Of a DNA stretch of 64,000 bases, positions 6,259-64,000 are shown piece by piece. The notes under the pieces were generated by a model. It saw nothing but the letters and a program-made list of their open reading frames with translations. It was not told where the DNA came from and ran no database searches. The position numbers and the translations under genes are program-made. Source of the stretch: Glaucostegus cemiculus (lineage: Eukaryota); contig CDPCPM010000048.1 in the NCBI GenBank assembly GCA_976551045.1, forward strand, positions 2,914,001 through 2,978,000, read 5' to 3'. Each line of letters starts with the position of its first letter. Positions within the stretch are counted from its first letter, which is position 1.

Positions 6259-6315
6259 CTCACCCATTTGTGCTTCAACAATCTGCTGTGCCAGTTCCTC
6301 CATACTGTTTGCCAT
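6259..6315 (-). CDS. NR2C1: NR2C1 (TR2) first coding segment, within exon 2 (exon spans 6259-6337)
   Basis: tgtatttcttccag|GATGTGCTC...TGA ATG GCA AAC AGT ATG GAG GAA CTG GCA CAG CAG ATT GTT GAA GCA CAA ATG GGT GAG|gtatgc = MANSMEELAQQIVEAQMGE. Recalled human NR2C1 N-terminus is MATIEEIAHQIIEQQMGE. Phase-0 donor after QMGE. Lies downstream of FGD6 on the same strand, as in human. Later exons were not found in the window. Confidence 0.82.
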
Positions 6316-7989
6316 TCAGATTATTCATGAGCACATCCTGGAAGAAATACACAGATTTATCCAGTGGATAATAGAGTCAAAGAAAATTACAGAATCCTCA
6401 TCAGGTGAAGAAATATATGACAGTTTATACCTACAAATGACAGGTGCACCAAGTTCCAGTTTTTAAATAAATGTAACATCATTTCTTGTTCCCTAAAATA
6501 AGCATAAAATCCTAGAAATGATAAAACATTGATAAAACACAGACCATAACCTCAGAACATCCCAGACTAGTGTCAATATATTCACGCATGAACATGTGCA
6601 TTAATGGAATGATCAGCATTTAATGTCCATCAGAACCTGCCAGAGGCCATTTAGTTCTGAAGTATGCTGAGGTGCAATATACAAAAAGTGTCAATGAATT
6701 TGCACAAAAAAAAGATGATGACTGCAAAGTATGTATTAGTGATATAGACCAAGGATGAAAATTAGCTTGTTTCTTCAGTAACATAATTTTAACTTTTATC
6801 CAGATGGGTCAGGAAGGAAGGAAGAAAATGAACCAAAGCTCCATTGGCATATAGAATTTGTGGCAAATTCTGGAATTTAGCCAAATAAGTTTTCATACAA
6901 GAAATACAATTGTGGCATAAATGCATAAAAGTACAGAAGATCAAATCCTATTCACAAAATTATAAAGATGAAATTGAATGTAAATCTTTATAATTCCATT
7001 CATTATGAATAACATCTAGCCACTGACAGTGTTGACTATTCTAATATCAATGGACATTAATTCAAACTGGACATAAAATATTGGAGCATGACAATAAATA
7101 GTGGAAACTACCTATGTTGCAGACAATATTTTACAAATGAAAATTAATTTGAAAGTAGACTAAGTGATCAACATTATACTTAAAGGATGAATCCAAAAGG
7201 ACCAACAGAATCGTCACACCATGGGGCAGTTCTTTGAACGATACAAGTCCTCTGCTCTACACAAACGTCCATTCCAAATTATCTCTTTGTACCTTGACAT
7301 TTTCATTAAGCTTGCACTCGTGATCTTTTGCCACTTTCCCTACTATTGGAGTTCATGTTAAAATAACATGTCAAATTTCCCTTCATTACACATACAACAC
7401 CATATAATCCACATCAGCTCAGAAACTCAAGTTTTTACTTCTTCATAACTCAGTTCTCTGTAACCACAAATTAGATATCCCATACTACTGTTAGCATCAA
7501 TTTTTCATTCAGTTATTTAATGCTAGCATACATTCCCCATCCCCATTTGGTCTAGGATGATGGAAGTCAGCATTCTTACATAAATGGAGTCCAAATGACA
7601 ACCATGTTGTAATTTATCCAAAGATATGTTCAAACGAAAAACATAATTGTGACACGAGAGTACTGACGAAGTGTTTCTCTTTCTATAGATGTTTCTTGAC
7701 CTGAGTGTTTCCAACATTCTCTACTTTTAAATTCAGATTTCCAGCAGTATTTTTTGATTTGCATTTGAGTCCATATAATGGCAATGCTCCCACAATGTAT
7801 TTGACAGGGCTCCAAGACTTTGATATCATGAAGGAATGGTGATATATGTCTATGGGTGAATTGGAAGAAAAATTTGAATGTAGTGTTATATCCATTCACA
7901 AAAAATTCTTGCTCTTCAAGGTAGTAAAAGTCAAACACTTAGGAGGTACTGCTGAAGGACGTCGAGTTGTCTTTTGGTTCTGATGCAGA

Positions 7990-10640: not shown

Positions 10641-11509
10641 AACTTTACTTCAATTCTGGAAGAAGTCACCTTTACCCAAACTCTATCCTGCTATACAGAG
10701 GGAGTGGTACTGGATGGCTACCTCAGCTAACTAAGCAAGTGTGAAGGGTTGCTCCGCCTTGAAGGAGGCGGAAGATGGAAAGGAGACAAATTAAGGATGC
10801 ATTAAAGAGGGTCCATCGCAGACACTGAGCATGGTGACAACCGTTGCAGAAAGAAGACCCTGAGTTTGGAACTCAGAGGATGACAACCTCCATCAGAATG
10901 AGCCTGGCCAATTCACCTCACACAGGTAGTATTCAAGTCCAAGCCATGAGTCTTGTGATTAGTGTAATGAGTGAGAAACCAGAATCTAATGTGAAGTTAG
11001 AGAGTTAATAGTATGCTAGCATGCCTAAGTGACTTGAGTACTTTGAGAGTCTCTTTGTGTGGCATGTCAGTTGATACCCTATAGAGGTAATAGGGTCAAT
11101 ATTGGTTATTGCACATCAACCTAATTTTATGACATTGACACAACAGAACCAAAGCCTAATACTCGAGGTCTTGTTAAATTGTTATCACCTTTCTTACACC
11201 ATTGCTGATCTCATACTGCAGCAACTTATTTTCAAGTTTCAAATGGGACACATTAAACAGCGAAGTTTCCATCTAGAAACTCCAACAATACCAACAAGTA
11301 ACATTTATTGAATAGTTGCAATTCTAGTTTCTGATTCCGAATTCTCTACTACATACCTTTTGCTGTTCTTCTTTCTCCAGCTTGGCACTTTATATAAACA
11401 GCCACCTTTTAATCTGCATGTTAAAATGGGCAAGAAAATCATATTTCAATTCTTTGAAAGTAAATTCAAAAGATAGTATCAGATGAAAATAATTTTGCAC
11501 AATACAGAG

Positions 11510-24700: not shown

Positions 24701-27007
24701 ACCAAGGCAAATCATGAATTTTTAACACTTTTGCAAGGATCAAAAAGAGCTCACTTTCCTACATGAATGCTTTATTCATAATTCAAATGCCTTTCACTTT
24801 ATATTATCATTTGAAAGCTGTATGTCAGAGGATACACTGGTAATCAAGCTATTTTAGTATTCTGGACCTTGATTCATTTGACATGACCTTCAACTCGATG
24901 CCAAACCTCAATCTAACCTGAAACTTCAAAATAAATTAAATATGCTCAGTCCAAAAGAATCATTTTTTGGGGCATTTATGTTAGCAAGAATTTTTCATTA
25001 AAAGATGATCCAATGAGGTATATTGATTTTGAGATCATTTCCTTATTGACCAGCTTCTCTTTTAACATGCATATCATTGTAATACTTGAGACCTCAGACA
25101 GAGAGCCAATGCTAGCACATTATGTCTATCAAATTTTACAACAGAAAAATGTAAGGCATCTCAATATTGGGGGTCAAGGTCAGGTTCTGGGTTAACAGAT
25201 GAAGGAGTAAGGGTAGTTGCTTCAAGAAATTTCCAAAATATTTTTGTCACTCCATATTTTACCTTTTGGATCAAAATGCACTTTTAGTTATACAAGACTT
25301 AGCAAAGATGCAAAACAACACTATAAATATCAAAATAGCTCACTAAAGGTGACCCTGACTTTTCCATTAACTCTGCAACTTTAAGACTTAAATAATATCC
25401 AGTGTTGTCAATTCTGGATTAGGAAGACATGGATTATACTTTTAACCCCTGCAGAACAATGATGTCTTAAATTGAAAATGCAAATATGAAGAAAATGCCA
25501 CAAAGCACATTTTAATACAGGAAACTTTCTAGCCTTCACTTGAGTAGAATTCGAATAAAAACAACACCAGCATTATTCAATAGTCCTAGTTTACAGACCA
25601 ATGAAAAGTTCACACACGCAACACGTCATCTAGTCACCAGTTTCTGTTCAGAATAGTAAATAGTCAATCAAAATACTTGAGTGCACGTCTGTCTTGAAGA
25701 TAATTTCTTATGCTGTGTTTAGAATATTTCCAACTATTCTATTGAATTTCATTGCTAAGCTAGTTTTTGATGAAGGGCACACAGGGTTTACCTTAACAAA
25801 CAGGATCACTGTTCTCTAGTGGTTAAAAATTCCCATCTAAGGAGATTTTATGGAAATAGAAATTAAAGGATGGTAATTGCTTGAAATTGGTATGAACTTG
25901 ACCCTCATAAGCGCAAGAAGTGAGTTTAGTTGAGAAGCAGAGTATTCTGAAGTCTTGTAAAGCATTTAACAGCAAGTTACAAGTCCTGTTGCTCTGCCCC
26001 ACGTAGACCTCCTCAATGCATCATGGGATATTTTGTCCAATCTTCACACTGTCCCTTTAAACTGTAAATTTTGTGCTGTTAATCTAAACTTGTATCAAGG
26101 CTTCCCACCATTTTTATAATAAACCAGTCAAGGATTCTCATCTCACCAATTTGGACTGAAATCCAATCTTCTGTCATTCCAAAGTATACATTATGTAATG
26201 ATTTGAAGATGTAACATCCATGCGAATGTGAAGCAATATACTGGCATTCTACCTACATAAGTGAGTAGAAGAGTAACAGTACATACATTGAACTCAAGGC
26301 CACCACAAACATCCAATGCAAATTATAACCTGCCATTGTTCTCCAAGATTAAAATTAATATTGGACAGACATTCCATCAAAGCAAGAATGAAGGCATGGT
26401 GAAATCAGTAACTGTGAATGAGTTTCCTTCAACTCTTATCAGTAAATTCAAAAAAAGTCAAAACAGGATGTCAAACGATGTGATTAATCTTTCTAAATTA
26501 GCTTTAGTCACACTGTTAAACAGTAAAGGTATCCAACATCCTGAAATGCTTCCCTAGATTTTCACTATAAATTTCAATTCCAGCACAATGCAAAGTTGTT
26601 AATATCACTCCATTATGAATATGTAACCTTTTTCCCCAGCAGTGTCCACCAACACATTAAAGTGTTATGCTCTTTCAAAAAGGTTAATTGCAGGTCAAAG
26701 CTTTCAATAAAGTGAACTCAGTAACTCAAAAAGAAACATTACTTCATCCAAGGGCCAATACTGAGGGCCATATCTGGCCATTGTTCAGCCTCCAACCCTG
26801 CTTCTGCCATGGTGGTGGTCGTGAGATCATGGGTTGGAGCAAAGTCAATGGGTCATGATCCTGATGCACAAGCAATTTTTCAAAGCTCCAGGTTTGTGGC
26901 AACAAAGTACATAGATTAAGTTGGCACAGGATGTCGGGAGCACACAACGGTGGAAGAAGTGGGGCAATTAGCATCTGTGAGGCCAGGAAAAAATGGCTTG
27001 ATGGAAA

Positions 27008-38200: not shown

Positions 38201-40044
38201 TGAAGACAACAAAGTTAGGGATGATGGATGTACATGACTTGGCATGGGATAATCAGCAGTCAGCTCAAGTATGCAAAATGTGGAAGATGGAAAGCCTACA
38301 AGAATATTAAATACAGTATCAGACAATACAAACGCATAGATAATTATTGTGGACAGAGATGGCACTTGATAACGTTCTGGAAGTAGGGACAGAAATAGTC
38401 TTTATAATGGAGATGATACAGGTTACAGCATCCGATAGAGTTAATGACAAAGCAAATTTGCTGAAGAACATCGAAAAACAGCTTTGGAAAGGCTAAACAT
38501 TCCAATGTTGTCTAATCAAAACAAGAAAGTGAAATGATGTCCAAATCTGAATTCGAACTTAAAAAGAGATCACCTCAGACATATCAATAATTAGCATGAA
38601 AGTCAACAGTTGACATCCTCTGCAAATTCTAGCATTGAGATAGACATATACAAAGTATACCTACGTCAAAGTTAAGCACAAGTGACAGAAAAGCTGCAAG
38701 TTATCCGAGGGATCAACACTTTACTGCTGCAACCTACATAATTCCTGCAGCTGACAAGCTGGATCTTCCAGCACCTAGCTGGAACTCAGATTCTGCTGCT
38801 GTGGAGACAACACTGGGCACAGGTCTACATGCAGCACAAACTTTTCCCCCAGCTAAATACAAAATGTGGGAAGTGTGGATGACAAAATCCACAGCCATTC
38901 AACCATTTAAATGTGCACAAGGAAGTTAAAAACACTTCTGTGGTCAATTAAGGTGCTACATAGGCACTGTGTTGTGCCATAGATGAAATATCATAGAGAG
39001 TTTGCCATCCCCCATTCTAAATTTACTACCATAGAGCAGAGTTTACTTGAAACACACTTAACATACAGAAATGCACTTTTCCTACTTAAGGTGCAGTAAA
39101 TGAAGACCAAATTATCACTGCATCCCAAGTAAACAATCATACATCATAAGGTATTGAAGCATTGACTGCCATGACATCCTCTACATTGCAGAACTGGTAG
39201 AACATATTCAAGGCTACTGCATTCAAAAGTATACACACGGAGCATAGCAACAAATGATTAAGCAAAACTGATCCGTGCCGGTGCTTTAATGAAAAAAGCC
39301 TGTAAACAATCACCTCCAACTACCCCTTCGTCTCTTCACCAAGCAACCCCTTAACATTTTCTAAGCAGCAGGTTCCACCTTATTACTGCACATAAACATT
39401 TCTCATTAATTCTTAATTTGGTCTGTTAGGGATGATATATCCATGCTGTCTTGTTTTGTAAACCATGCTCAATGGAAATACTTCTCCTCATCATTCTATC
39501 AAATATCATTGTTTTCGCTCGTTTTCTCCTTTCCAGAGATACCAGCCATGGCCTGCTCAATTCTGATAAATCTTGCTGCCGCTCTTTAGTATCCTCTCTG
39601 TAGCATGAAGGCAGTAGGGATCAGAGAATGACATAGCACAGTAGGAAGCCATTCATGCCTGTCTACTCCTCGAAAGAGCTGTCCAATTAATCCCACTCCC
39701 TGCTCTTTCCCCCAAAGCCCTGAAAATGTCCTTTTTCACTCCAGACTGCATCTCTCACAAAATCTAAACCTAAAGGCACATGGACATTTTATTCGCGTTA
39801 CCGTTTACAGTAACAAAAACAAAAAAAGCTTTTCAGTCTGTCTTGTGGGCAAATATCCAATGTCCGGGTTGTATTTGCTCCCTTATTTTCAGCTGCTGCA
39901 GTTGACATCATCAGGCTGCAGTTCGTCGAGGAACATTCTCCCATTAGCAAAATGTTTTGTTTGCAAACCTACAGATTAAATGACCCATTTTGGGGAGCGA
40001 TGCGAAGTATTCAAACTTGGGGAGGGGGTGGTTGGTTGATCCTC

Positions 40045-40064
40045 GGGGGGGGGGGGGGGGGGGG
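40045..40064 (+). repeat. Poly-G tract (20 nt)
   Basis: Read directly from the sequence. Confidence 0.9.
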
Positions 40065-40797
40065 CAGAATATCCCCTGCGCTGCGGGACGGAGGGCGCAC
40101 CCTCTGCATTGGGAGAGGGGGGGGGAACCAAATCCAGCCCGCTGACTGCCTGCGCCACAGCAGGCCTCGGGTGCCAGTCCGGACGCCGGGGCTCTCGGAG
40201 GCCGCTGCCGGGCTCGACGACCTGTTGGGAGTCCCATGTAGGAGACCCTCACGGTGACAGCCCGGGATTATATTGGGGGGGGGGCAGGACAGTCAGTGAG
40301 CCCTCGGCCCGAGGGGTTCCTGTGCCGGGTCCGGCCTGGCGCCTCTCCCTCGCCTACCCCCGGGGTTGAGGAGGTGGCAGCCGGCTGGTCGGTCGGTCGG
40401 TCGGGCAGGCGGCGGGGAGCCGAGGCTGCGGCTGCTCTGGGTGAAAGGTCACGGAGAGGGGGTGAACCGCTGTCGTCAGATATGCAAAAGCAGCGGCCGC
40501 ACGGCGCTGCCCGAAGTGGGTCTGTCGGCGGGTCTGCGGCGGCTCTCGGGACTCCCACCGGCACCCCCGCCCCGTCTCCTCGGCCCAAGTATGGCCGGCC
40601 GCAACCACCCCCCCCCCCCGAGGCCTTGCGGCCCGCTCCCTTCCCCTCAGGACCGTCGCCGCTCGCCGTGGCTGGGGCCTGGGCTCGGCGGGGCGGCGCC
40701 GGGGCCCTGAGATGGCGGTGGTTCCGCCGCCGCCGCGGTCGGAGCCCGCCCGGCCGCCGCTCCGACGGGACGTTCAGGCGCCCTTCCCGCCTCTTAC

Positions 40798-40910
40798 CTG
40801 AGACGTTATTTTTCAAACGGGCGGAAAAAGCCCCGAACGTTTCTTCCCCCCCGGTTTCTCGGCTCCGCGGCGGGTCAGAGTTCGTGACCTCTCCCTCGCT
40901 TCGACAGGCG
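40798..40910 (-). other. NR2C1: NR2C1 non-coding exon 1 (5'UTR; TSS position approximate)
   Basis: Consensus donor CAG|GTAAGA on the minus strand at 40798/40797 inside the CpG island. No minus-strand ATG between 40910 and 40798. Confidence 0.7.
40872..40890. promoter_or_regulatory. Composite nuclear-receptor response element (DR1 + IR0 + IR7)
   Basis: Plus strand GGGTCA-g-AGTTCG-TGACCT; minus strand AGGTCA-CGAACT-c-TGACCC. Three RGKTCA-type half sites in 19 bp. Confidence 0.8.
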
Positions 40911-40921
40911 GCGCATGCGCA
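40911..40921. promoter_or_regulatory. NRF1 binding motif
   Basis: GCGCATGCGCA, the palindromic NRF1 core, next to the inferred TSS. Confidence 0.7.
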
Positions 40922-40983
40922 CTCCCTCCCTCCCCACCAAGGCGGGGAGGAGGAGGAGGAGGACGACGACGAACGACGATGCG

Positions 40984-40993
40984 CAAAATGGCG
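40984..40993 (+). promoter_or_regulatory. YY1 motif
   Basis: CAAAATGGCG. A second YY1-like AGATGGCGG occurs near 40710. Confidence 0.6.
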
Positions 40994-42239
40994 ACGCGGC
41001 CAGTTAATGGGCGCTTGGACGTGTGCCAAAAAAATCCCAAAAAAACAAACGCTAGCTCTTCCTGCAGTGGAAAGGTATCTGTTGTGTTTTTTTTTGGTTG
41101 GCCTTGCCGTTCGGAGTGCTGCGGAGCCGGTGAAGGTCGCCCGAGGGGGCGGGGGGTGGCGATGGTGGTCAGCGGCTCCGAGGCGCAGGCGGGGCGGCTG
41201 ATGGCGCTCGATGAGAGCCCGTCAGCTCCCCCATTTTCTGCGGGCCCGGAGCAGGCAGCTACCCACCCCCTCCCTCCTCCCCATCCACAGGCTCGGTCTC
41301 TGCTCCTCTCACATCCACCTCAAGATAAATTATTCATTCTACCAGGAGCTTTGGCTGTTGAAAAATAACCAGTGGAAAGGGGACAAAATACAGAAAAACA
41401 AATACCAACAATTAGAAATCAAGGGAGTAGAAGCCTGAAACATATTTGTGAGAGAAGTATAATTTTTTTTGAAAAATGAGCGTCTTTTTCCCAAATGGTT
41501 CAGAGGTCTCTATATTCCCACACAACTTAGTGCAAGGTCAAGTTTCCCTCTCTGTATAAAACCTGCCTCAATTCATGGGTAGCAGCTGGACTTTGTGATC
41601 TCCTGCGATTCCTTTACTCCCATTGTGTCAATACTCTTGCGTTTTCCACCGCAGGAAGAATTCATGCAGATCTCCACTCTTTGAATTCAAACAATTCTAT
41701 TCCCCCATCACCTTCAGACTCACAAAACAACATTGATTTCTTGTCTGAGATTTGTTTTCATACTGTCCCACTATTTGTGGTCTGCCCCCCATAAACCTTT
41801 CCTCCTTTATCATCTTTAATATTTCCTTTAAAACCCCTTTCGGTAAGCTTTGCTGTATTAGTTACTGTAGGAGCTGAATTTTTGTTCATCCTGACAATGT
41901 ACTAATAAAGATGCTTTACAGGCCAAAGTGTTGTTGATCCCTGATTTAACCACCTCTGGTCACATCCTTCCCTCCCTGACCTTCAAAAGTACCAATTTAA
42001 AATGAAAACATGCAATTTGTAATTAAAATAATTATTTGGTTAAAAGATAAAAGCTGGGAATCTGAAATAAAAGTACAAACAATCACAAACAAAATATAAG
42101 AAATATGCAGCATGAAAAATCTGAAGTAAAATTCACATTCTACGTGAAGTAAAACATTCTGTAAATTTGTACCATACATACCATATTATCAAATAGAATA
42201 TAAGGAAACAAAATAAAAAGATGTTACTTTGAAACTGCC

Positions 42240-62780: not shown

Positions 62781-62830
62781 TTGGATCTCCAGCATCCATG
62801 GTGTTTGCATTTGCAGTTTGTTTTACTCAC

Positions 62831-62982
62831 CTTCGGGCAGTGTGAGGATCATCTGCTTTAAACACATAGAACAGTGTTCTTTTATGAAACAACTGAAAGA
62901 TCACTTTGAGTTCTGAAAGGTCATCTTGCACTTCTGAAACTGTGAATCCAAGTAATGGTTGGCTCTCCAAAGCGGCCACATC
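62831..62982 (-). CDS. FGD6: FGD6 penultimate coding exon (C-terminal PH domain), 152 nt
   Basis: Minus strand reads ...ccaaaaaaag|GATGTGGCC...GCCCGAAG|gtgagt. Translation DVAALESQPLLGFTVSEVQDDLSELKVIFQLFHKRTLFYVFKADDPHTAR(R) closely matches human FGD6 as recalled (DVAALESQPLLGFTVIQVKDENSESKVFQLLHKNMLFYVFKAEDAHSAQK) and matches FGD5 less well. Canonical AG/GT ends. Confidence 0.9.
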
Positions 62983-64000
62983 CTTTTTTTGGAAAAATAC
63001 ACCAGAAATAAAGCTTTATAGAACATTCAATGCGTCAGATGCATTAAATAACATTAATATTTGCTGTAACTAATCGAAGCTTTTGTCTTTGTGGACTATA
63101 AAGGAGCATGCATGGAATTCTAAATCCATAAAAGACAACAGTGATAATAAAACTGATTCTGACTCTAAGTCCACATTTCACTTTCATTTCTAGAGCAAAT
63201 GACACCAACACATTTGATCTAATAATGCACACCAATAAAGGTGCAGCCTTTAACTGTTCTAGTAAGGTGAGGTTGCAAGGCTTAGCACCTCACAGTCAGA
63301 CAGCCAACCTGCACCAGATATTTTCCTATATTTTTATATATTTCAAACTCTGGAGAGAAGTTAATATGTGATCCCTTCAGGGCTTTGCCCTCTACATTTC
63401 TGCCCATCCCTCTTTGACTTGTTGGAATAAAATGCAACAAATAATAGGGAACCACCAATATGTTCTCATCTCCAAATGCTGGAGCCTCACCAACCACTGA
63501 GCAATACAAATGTACTAGATCTCTACCTTCACCTGTCAAGACACATTACTAGATCTACACAAACCATTTAAAGAGTTCATAGCAATGCCACTAAGGGAAT
63601 GGAACTAGCATGAAAGCTTCTAATCGAAATACAATTTGAATATCTGAAGTGGAAGCAGGCTTTTCCCACCTGTCCAGTACAAGAATGAAGAGATAGAAAT
63701 TGCTCACTGGACATGCAGGTTCCTGAAATATATTGTTAATTGTCGTAGACCACACTGCGGATGTTGCATGAATTGTCAAGATAACCTATCAGTTTTTGTA
63801 AGGTTAAAAAATATTGTGTTGTTACCTTTTGTATAACTTTATTACAGGAACAAAGTTAACACACTTTCTTACTACTGACACAACTTCTATTTATATAGCA
63901 CTTTAAACACATCAAAATATTTGAAGGTGGCTCTTAGGAGAGGGGAATGTTAGGAAAGGGATTGAGGAAATAAATTACAAACTTCAGAACCTTGGCAACA

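Follow-up and report, generated by a model that had tools for sequence, protein, structure and literature searches.

A three-half-site IR0/DR1 element at the 5' end of a ray gene, a probable orthologue of the mouse Tr2-11 retinoic acid response element

Introduction

The closest described counterpart of the element considered here is the IR0 element of mouse Tr2-11 (Nr2c1), which TR2 itself is reported (Lee and Wei 1999) to bind, with damping of the induction by retinoic acid (RA); the idea of feedback at this promoter would then be already known. The mouse element reads GGGTCA CGAACT in a published table of RA response elements (RAREs; PMC4490549), and another report describes it as the principal RARE of the gene, with RAR/RXR gel-shift, reporter and ChIP data, biphasic RA control in P19 and 3T3-L1 cells, and an exchange between PCAF and RIP140 in 3T3-L1 cells (PMC1874640). 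TR4 (NR2C2) is found at the human promoter of NR2C1 (TR2), according to the legend of a ChIP-seq figure covering four human cell lines (PMC3019231, Fig. 1B), and the supplement of the same study gives an NR2C1 primer pair; the human peak is not resolved to a motif of the type described below. A DR1 with an A or G spacer is the commonest repeat in the promoter peaks of TR4 (PMC3019231, PMC4014424), DR1s occur in under about one third of all TR4 peaks, and many peaks depend on ETS factors (PMC3019231). The TR4 erythroid supplements searched gave no NR2C1 row (PMC4014424).

Other receptors recognize the same arrangements. In a binding study, RXRA without ligand prefers IR0 and then DR1, an order that 9-cis RA reverses, and both COUP-TF and PPARG prefer DR1 (PMC10345098). 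Composite response elements are described as common receptor hubs (PMC4446430), among them the DR1/DR0 of Pou5f1 (Oct4), and AGTTCG half-sites are reported to be functional in Alu DR2 RAREs, the methylated ones decaying to AGTTCA (PMC1785376).

The element, its link to RA and TR4 occupancy are therefore already known in mammals. In a literature search that left out most subscription journals and the TR2 papers of the 1990s, we found no report of the element in fishes or elsewhere outside mammals, of its DR1 register, of a fixed spacing from NRF1, or of an IR7 together with TR2; three further papers (PMC11121135, PMC12191391, PMC3024949) contribute nothing on the element. Here we describe a related motif in the ray Glaucostegus cemiculus and consider what it might do.

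Results

Gene identity and transcript structure

The window, that is, the whole 64-kb stretch of ray DNA analysed here, contains a 3' coding exon of FGD6 at 62830..62985 on the minus strand (98% to sawfish, 92-94% to other rays and 86-92% to sharks, which marks the DNA as that of a batoid); it makes FGD6 the upstream neighbour, on the same strand, of the gene discussed below. The tandem order is FGD6-NR2C1, and a label in woodchuck fits it: two woodchuck proteins that their sources name NR2C1 (P0024 and P0100) are C-terminal fragments of FGD6, probably the product of a fused gene model. The window holds one candidate coding exon of NR2C1, at 6259..6337 on the minus strand, with an ATG at 6315 and 19 codons; it is probably the first coding exon, its translation presumably resembling the NR2C1 N-terminus. 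Searches of this 19-aa sequence against the PDB and a set of 5.8 billion proteins did not confirm the NR2C1 identity, nor did a search of a representative protein set, in which the one match was a repetitive protein of 1999 aa. Taking synteny with FGD6 and the presumed likeness of the 19-aa exon together, the gene is very probably NR2C1. This first coding exon is also accompanied by two upstream ATGs, one opening a very short ORF and the other an out-of-frame ORF that overlaps the main start.

Sequencing reads of relatives came from 4 of the 23 runs listed (X10, X18, X19 and X21), of which X21 is RNA from a related species. There are 22 X21 reads on the window, always with the first mate on the plus strand. 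Thirteen of them leave the window sequence at 40798, directly before a GT donor at 40797-40796, and the loose ends of the spliced reads agree with 11413-11384 at 29 of 30 bases, where an AG acceptor precedes. This splice evidence puts the last base of exon 1 at 40798, makes intron 1 about 29.4 kb long and places the transcript on the minus strand. The same reads and acceptor define a non-coding exon 2 of 57 nt (11357..11413, minus strand), whose 3' end is predicted from the GT consensus; this exon divides the leader region of 34.5 kb into introns of 29.4 kb and 5 kb. No splice leading from it to the candidate coding exon was observed. Three X21 reads exit at 40716 without a GT donor, which probably reflects divergence of the intron.

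The mean depth of X21 RNA is 5.5 over 40871-40900 and 1.3-3 as far as 41200. These reads cover the motif described next, which puts it within the first exon of at least some of the relative's transcripts, unlike the Tr2-11 IR0 as it has been described. No transcription start site stood out in the X21 RNA reads.

Geometry of the element

Positions 40890-40872 read AGGTCA CGAACT C TGACCC on the minus strand, a 19-mer with three nuclear-receptor half-sites. The first (40890-40885) and the third (40877-40872, GGGTCA on the plus strand) agree with RGKTCA without mismatch, and the middle one (40884-40879, AGTTCG on the plus strand) differs from it at one base. A preliminary description of this DNA had read an IR0, a DR1 and an IR7 in the single motif, and all three are geometrically present in 40872..40890. 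The IR0 and the DR1 have the middle half-site in common; since the two together generate an IR7 automatically, the IR7 is a by-product of their overlap, and nothing separate speaks for it.

The IR0 register (40879..40890, minus strand) consists of two inverted half-sites with no spacer and is identical at 11 of 12 bases to the mouse Tr2-11 IR0, a likeness that the preliminary description had pointed to and that the published RARE table bears out (PMC4490549). The shared bases include the atypical half-site, and the two elements occupy the 5' ends of genes that are likely orthologous, downstream of FGD6; the one difference is base 1, which is A in the ray and G in the mouse. The DR1 register, GGGTCA-G-AGTTCG (40872..40884, plus strand), is promoter-proximal and departs at one base from a repeat of RGKTCA with a one-base spacer. 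Its purine spacer and its setting in a CpG-island start are those of the promoter-proximal DR1s of TR4 and TR2 in two studies (PMC3019231, PMC4014424), in which human NR2C1 is listed as a TR4 target; the ray element differs in that its 3' half-site is AGTTCG and is common to an IR0, and the exact human site is not given in that text.

Chance was assessed with dinucleotide shuffles of the CpG island (n = 3000) and with shuffles of the whole window (n = 60). None of the 3000 island shuffles contained a trio of half-sites within 19 nt whose mismatches totalled one or fewer. Looser definitions were met by chance more often, in 12/3000 shuffles for clusters within 24 nt, in 38/3000 within 30 nt, in 671/3000 when two mismatches were allowed in 30 nt, and in 248/3000 under a further looser definition. 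Over the whole 64 kb, two 19-nt clusters were observed, at 40872 and 25171, against 0.1 in shuffles. The second (25171-25194, plus strand) is a DR0-like run of half-sites beginning GGGTCA AGGTCA GGTTCT in AT-rich sequence of intron 1.

CpG island and NRF1 site

The only CpG island of the window extends over approximately 40001..41250 (GC 0.61-0.80, CpG observed/expected 0.60-1.26) and contains the gene start. Within it, the palindromic 10-mer GCGCATGCGC at 40911..40920 is a predicted binding site of NRF1. It lies exactly 20 bp from the element, and 74 bp separate the motif from the GT at 40797-40796, so that the distances of about 20 and about 75 bp given in the preliminary description hold. 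An ATG falls within the palindrome, and the relative X18 carries one substitution inside it, at 40916. Further out, 40985-40993 on the plus strand is a YY1-type motif; it points away from the gene and is accompanied by a donor-like site near 41075. None of the 22 X21 reads represents plus-strand RNA in this region.

Conservation in close relatives

Substitutions were counted in X10 and X18, in which all of them could be placed (14/14 and 33/33); X19 and X21 stood outside the count, as 4 of 6 and 10 of 14 of their substitutions lacked a position. Neither X10 nor X18 has a substitution in 40872-40890, and their read depth shows no deletion there, insertions being not fully excluded by this measure. 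However, the 19-mer is not conserved above its local background, the probability of zero substitutions being 0.39 for X18 and 0.54 for X10.

A block in intron 1 (40398..40491, plus strand) stands out from its flanks more clearly than the 19-mer does: when X10 and X18 are pooled, a single position varies among its 94 nt, compared with 14 among the neighbouring 95 nt. It contains a second DR1 with a purine spacer, GGGTGA-A-AGGTCA (40439-40451, plus strand), whose perfect half-site is likewise followed by CG, as well as a further pair of half-sites at 40460-40468 and an octamer-like site at 40482-40489 (plus strand).

A distant match

A metagenome collection scanned with a degenerate form of the 19-mer gave 75 loci, 74 of them with 30 upstream bases. 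All but one of the 75 look unrelated, many being bacterial; 31 (L009, L010, L016, L017 and others) carry one and the same palindromic variant, many of them within bacterial coding sequence of a similar kind, so that the number of matches is inflated. The remaining locus, L023, has a 19-mer identical to that of the ray and, upstream of it, the NRF1-type 10-mer at the identical offset of -30, a spacing that had been stated ahead of the scan. This is 1 of 74 loci against 0.0005 expected from per-locus composition; for the 10-mer anywhere in the 100 bp upstream, 0.046 would be expected among the 74. At 79 bp downstream there is a donor-like site, compared with 74 bp in the ray, while the spacer and flanks of L023 are AT-rich and not alignable with those of the ray. 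The GCTAG/GCTAA richness downstream, a teleost trait, suggests a teleost gene start, and the source of L023 is likely a bony fish. As L023 is a single contig without a coding exon, it could represent nr2c1, nr2c2 or another gene.

A second candidate, L022, has a G-form 19-mer behind GC boxes; it was counted as a chance match, having neither the NRF1 site nor a matching donor. Viral sequences gave 20 matches to a pattern of the NRF1 site plus a half-site and none to the 19-mer, and a scan of prokaryote genomes gave six matches, every one with a bacterial or archaeal title. Primers published for the human and mouse promoters, four in all, aligned with the ray island no better than with shuffles (96-282/300).

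The deep conservation that had been proposed for the element thus draws independent support from the whole module in L023, whereas the comparison of close relatives, in which the 19-mer does no better than its neighbourhood, lends it none. The third half-site, and with it the DR1, and the NRF1 site 20 bp away are common to the ray and L023; the comparison with the mouse covers the 12-mer, and the DR1 register may be absent in mammals. The internal CpG of the element is kept in the ray, L023 and the mouse, and in the ray lies in an island where CpG observed/expected reaches 1.26. Its retention in such a setting argues for a CpG that is unmethylated in the germ line, and the methylation sensitivity suggested for it finds no support.

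Discussion

The ray motif is probably the orthologue of the known mammalian element, with some new anatomy. On balance, we favour the view that the ray element works as a hub under constant occupancy, at which feedback by TR2/TR4 is set against RXR dimers, rather than as an on/off switch for RA. Under this proposal, NRF1 would keep the CpG island open and set basal transcription. As the IR0 and the DR1 have the middle half-site in common, we infer that two dimers could not use it at once: TR2/TR4 in the DR1 register would provide feedback that sets the dose of NR2C1 against total TR2 plus TR4, and an RXR-containing dimer would alternatively occupy the IR0 register. RA would then affect the output only in those cell types in which RAR, with its co-regulators, prevails in the competition, and the second DR1, in intron 1, would likely reinforce the same feedback loop. 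A comparable arrangement is that of Pou5f1, whose DR1/DR0 also has three half-sites, overlapping registers and competing nuclear receptors (PMC4446430); the ray element differs in combining an IR0 with a DR1, in belonging to a nuclear-receptor gene and in its fixed spacing from NRF1.

The strongest competitor, which we consider unlikely, is that the element acts mainly as an RA-inducible RARE, with RAR/RXR on the IR0 driving a pulse of NR2C1 expression, to which TR2 in turn puts an end. The mouse reporter, gel-shift and ChIP data and the biphasic response of P19 and 3T3-L1 cells speak for it (PMC1874640), as does the activity of AGTTCG half-sites in Alu RAREs (PMC1785376). Data from F9 cells bear on it in both directions. 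The F9 peak table contains two 500-bp windows (chr10:93610551-93611051 and chr10:93610823-93611323, mm9) that start 272 bp apart and 2.5 kb past the end of Fgd6; the peaks are weak and overlapping, and are assigned to Nr2c1 by their distance from Fgd6. At 0, 2, 24 and 48 h of RA, coverage in the first was 5.3, 4.7, 10.8 and 8.4 for RAR and 16.3, 20.0, 18.7 and 19.8 for RXR, and in the second 4.1, 5.0, 9.6 and 6.2 for RAR and 13.9, 11.9, 15.7 and 16.3 for RXR (PMC4446430). RAR coverage therefore roughly doubles by 24 h in the first (5.3 to 10.8), as an RA-driven element would predict. However, RAR is not clearly raised at 2 h, both windows are classed as non_dyn, and Nr2c1 is not among the 3971 genes listed as RA-regulated in F9 cells in the material available, which do include Cyp26a1 and Fgd6 (PMC4446430). 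Moreover, an NRF1 site in a CpG island is an architecture of the housekeeping type, and the supporting work that we found is that of one laboratory. Of the RA and autoregulatory switch envisaged in the preliminary description, the feedback part is hence plausible, given TR4 at the human NR2C1 promoter, but not new; the RA part agrees with the P19 and 3T3-L1 data and is weakened by the RXR-dominant, non-dynamic peaks and the lack of Nr2c1 regulation in F9 cells. If taken at face value, the two F9 summits would parallel the two ray elements, which lie about 430 bp apart, the signals being weak and overlapping. That the mouse peaks lie just past Fgd6, as the ray element lies past an FGD6 on the same strand, supports the gene assignment.

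It ranks next, and is likewise improbable, that the element has been kept for other proteins that bind DR1 or IR0, such as RXR homodimers, COUP-TF, HNF4 or PPAR/RXR, without real feedback by TR2/TR4. RXR exceeds RAR at every time point in F9 cells, the binding preferences of RXRA, COUP-TF and PPARG would suit such an element (PMC10345098), and composite elements often serve as hubs (PMC4446430). Against this, TR4 occupies the human NR2C1 promoter, by the legend cited above, and, among 25 rows of the F9 table, RXR is likewise above RAR in most of the untreated peaks, so the RXR/RAR ratio alone is not diagnostic.

It would be tempting to go further and see in the locus a switch between registers, although this strikes us as a rather doubtful extension. 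A rigid module of NRF1, 20 bp and IR0/DR1 would have been kept for more than 420 million years; RXR without ligand would sit on the IR0 and, given a rexinoid, would move to the DR1 and compete there with TR2/TR4, such that NR2C1 would read the ligand of RXR rather than that of RAR, the intronic DR1 serving as backup. Within such a scheme L023 may be a paralogue, in which case the loop would be older than the genome duplications of vertebrates.

A chance cluster, with the mouse and L023 matches arising by coincidence or convergence, is very improbable: the 74 unrelated loci among the 75 metagenome matches show that the 19-mer alone arises by chance in large collections, and the window has a second cluster at 25171, yet no island shuffle reproduced the motif, the mouse match is at the same gene, and the NRF1 offset in L023 is identical. 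We give least credence of all to retention for a role other than receptor binding, either as a hairpin of the 5' leader RNA or as a B box for TFIIIC. The motif is transcribed, pairing between its IR7 arms is feasible (5 bp in L023), and there is some likeness between AGTTCG and the B box of Alu. Even so, a conserved leader fold was rejected on folding z values of -0.12 to -0.98 and on structures that differ between the ray and L023, and an RNA polymerase III B box (GWTCRANNC) on a T in place of the A and the lack of any island match.

The hub with competing TR2/TR4 and RXR dimers thus remains the reading that we prefer. The ray motif opens no new kind of system. If the element has indeed been kept from rays to mammals, however, a much-cited atypical RARE, known largely from the cell-culture work of one laboratory, would gain evolutionary support, and it would be recast as one half of an IR0/DR1 composite held at a fixed distance from NRF1. 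It would also offer a small and testable model of how the dose of TR2/TR4 is set, and of the constraint on spacing between NRF1 and a nuclear receptor.
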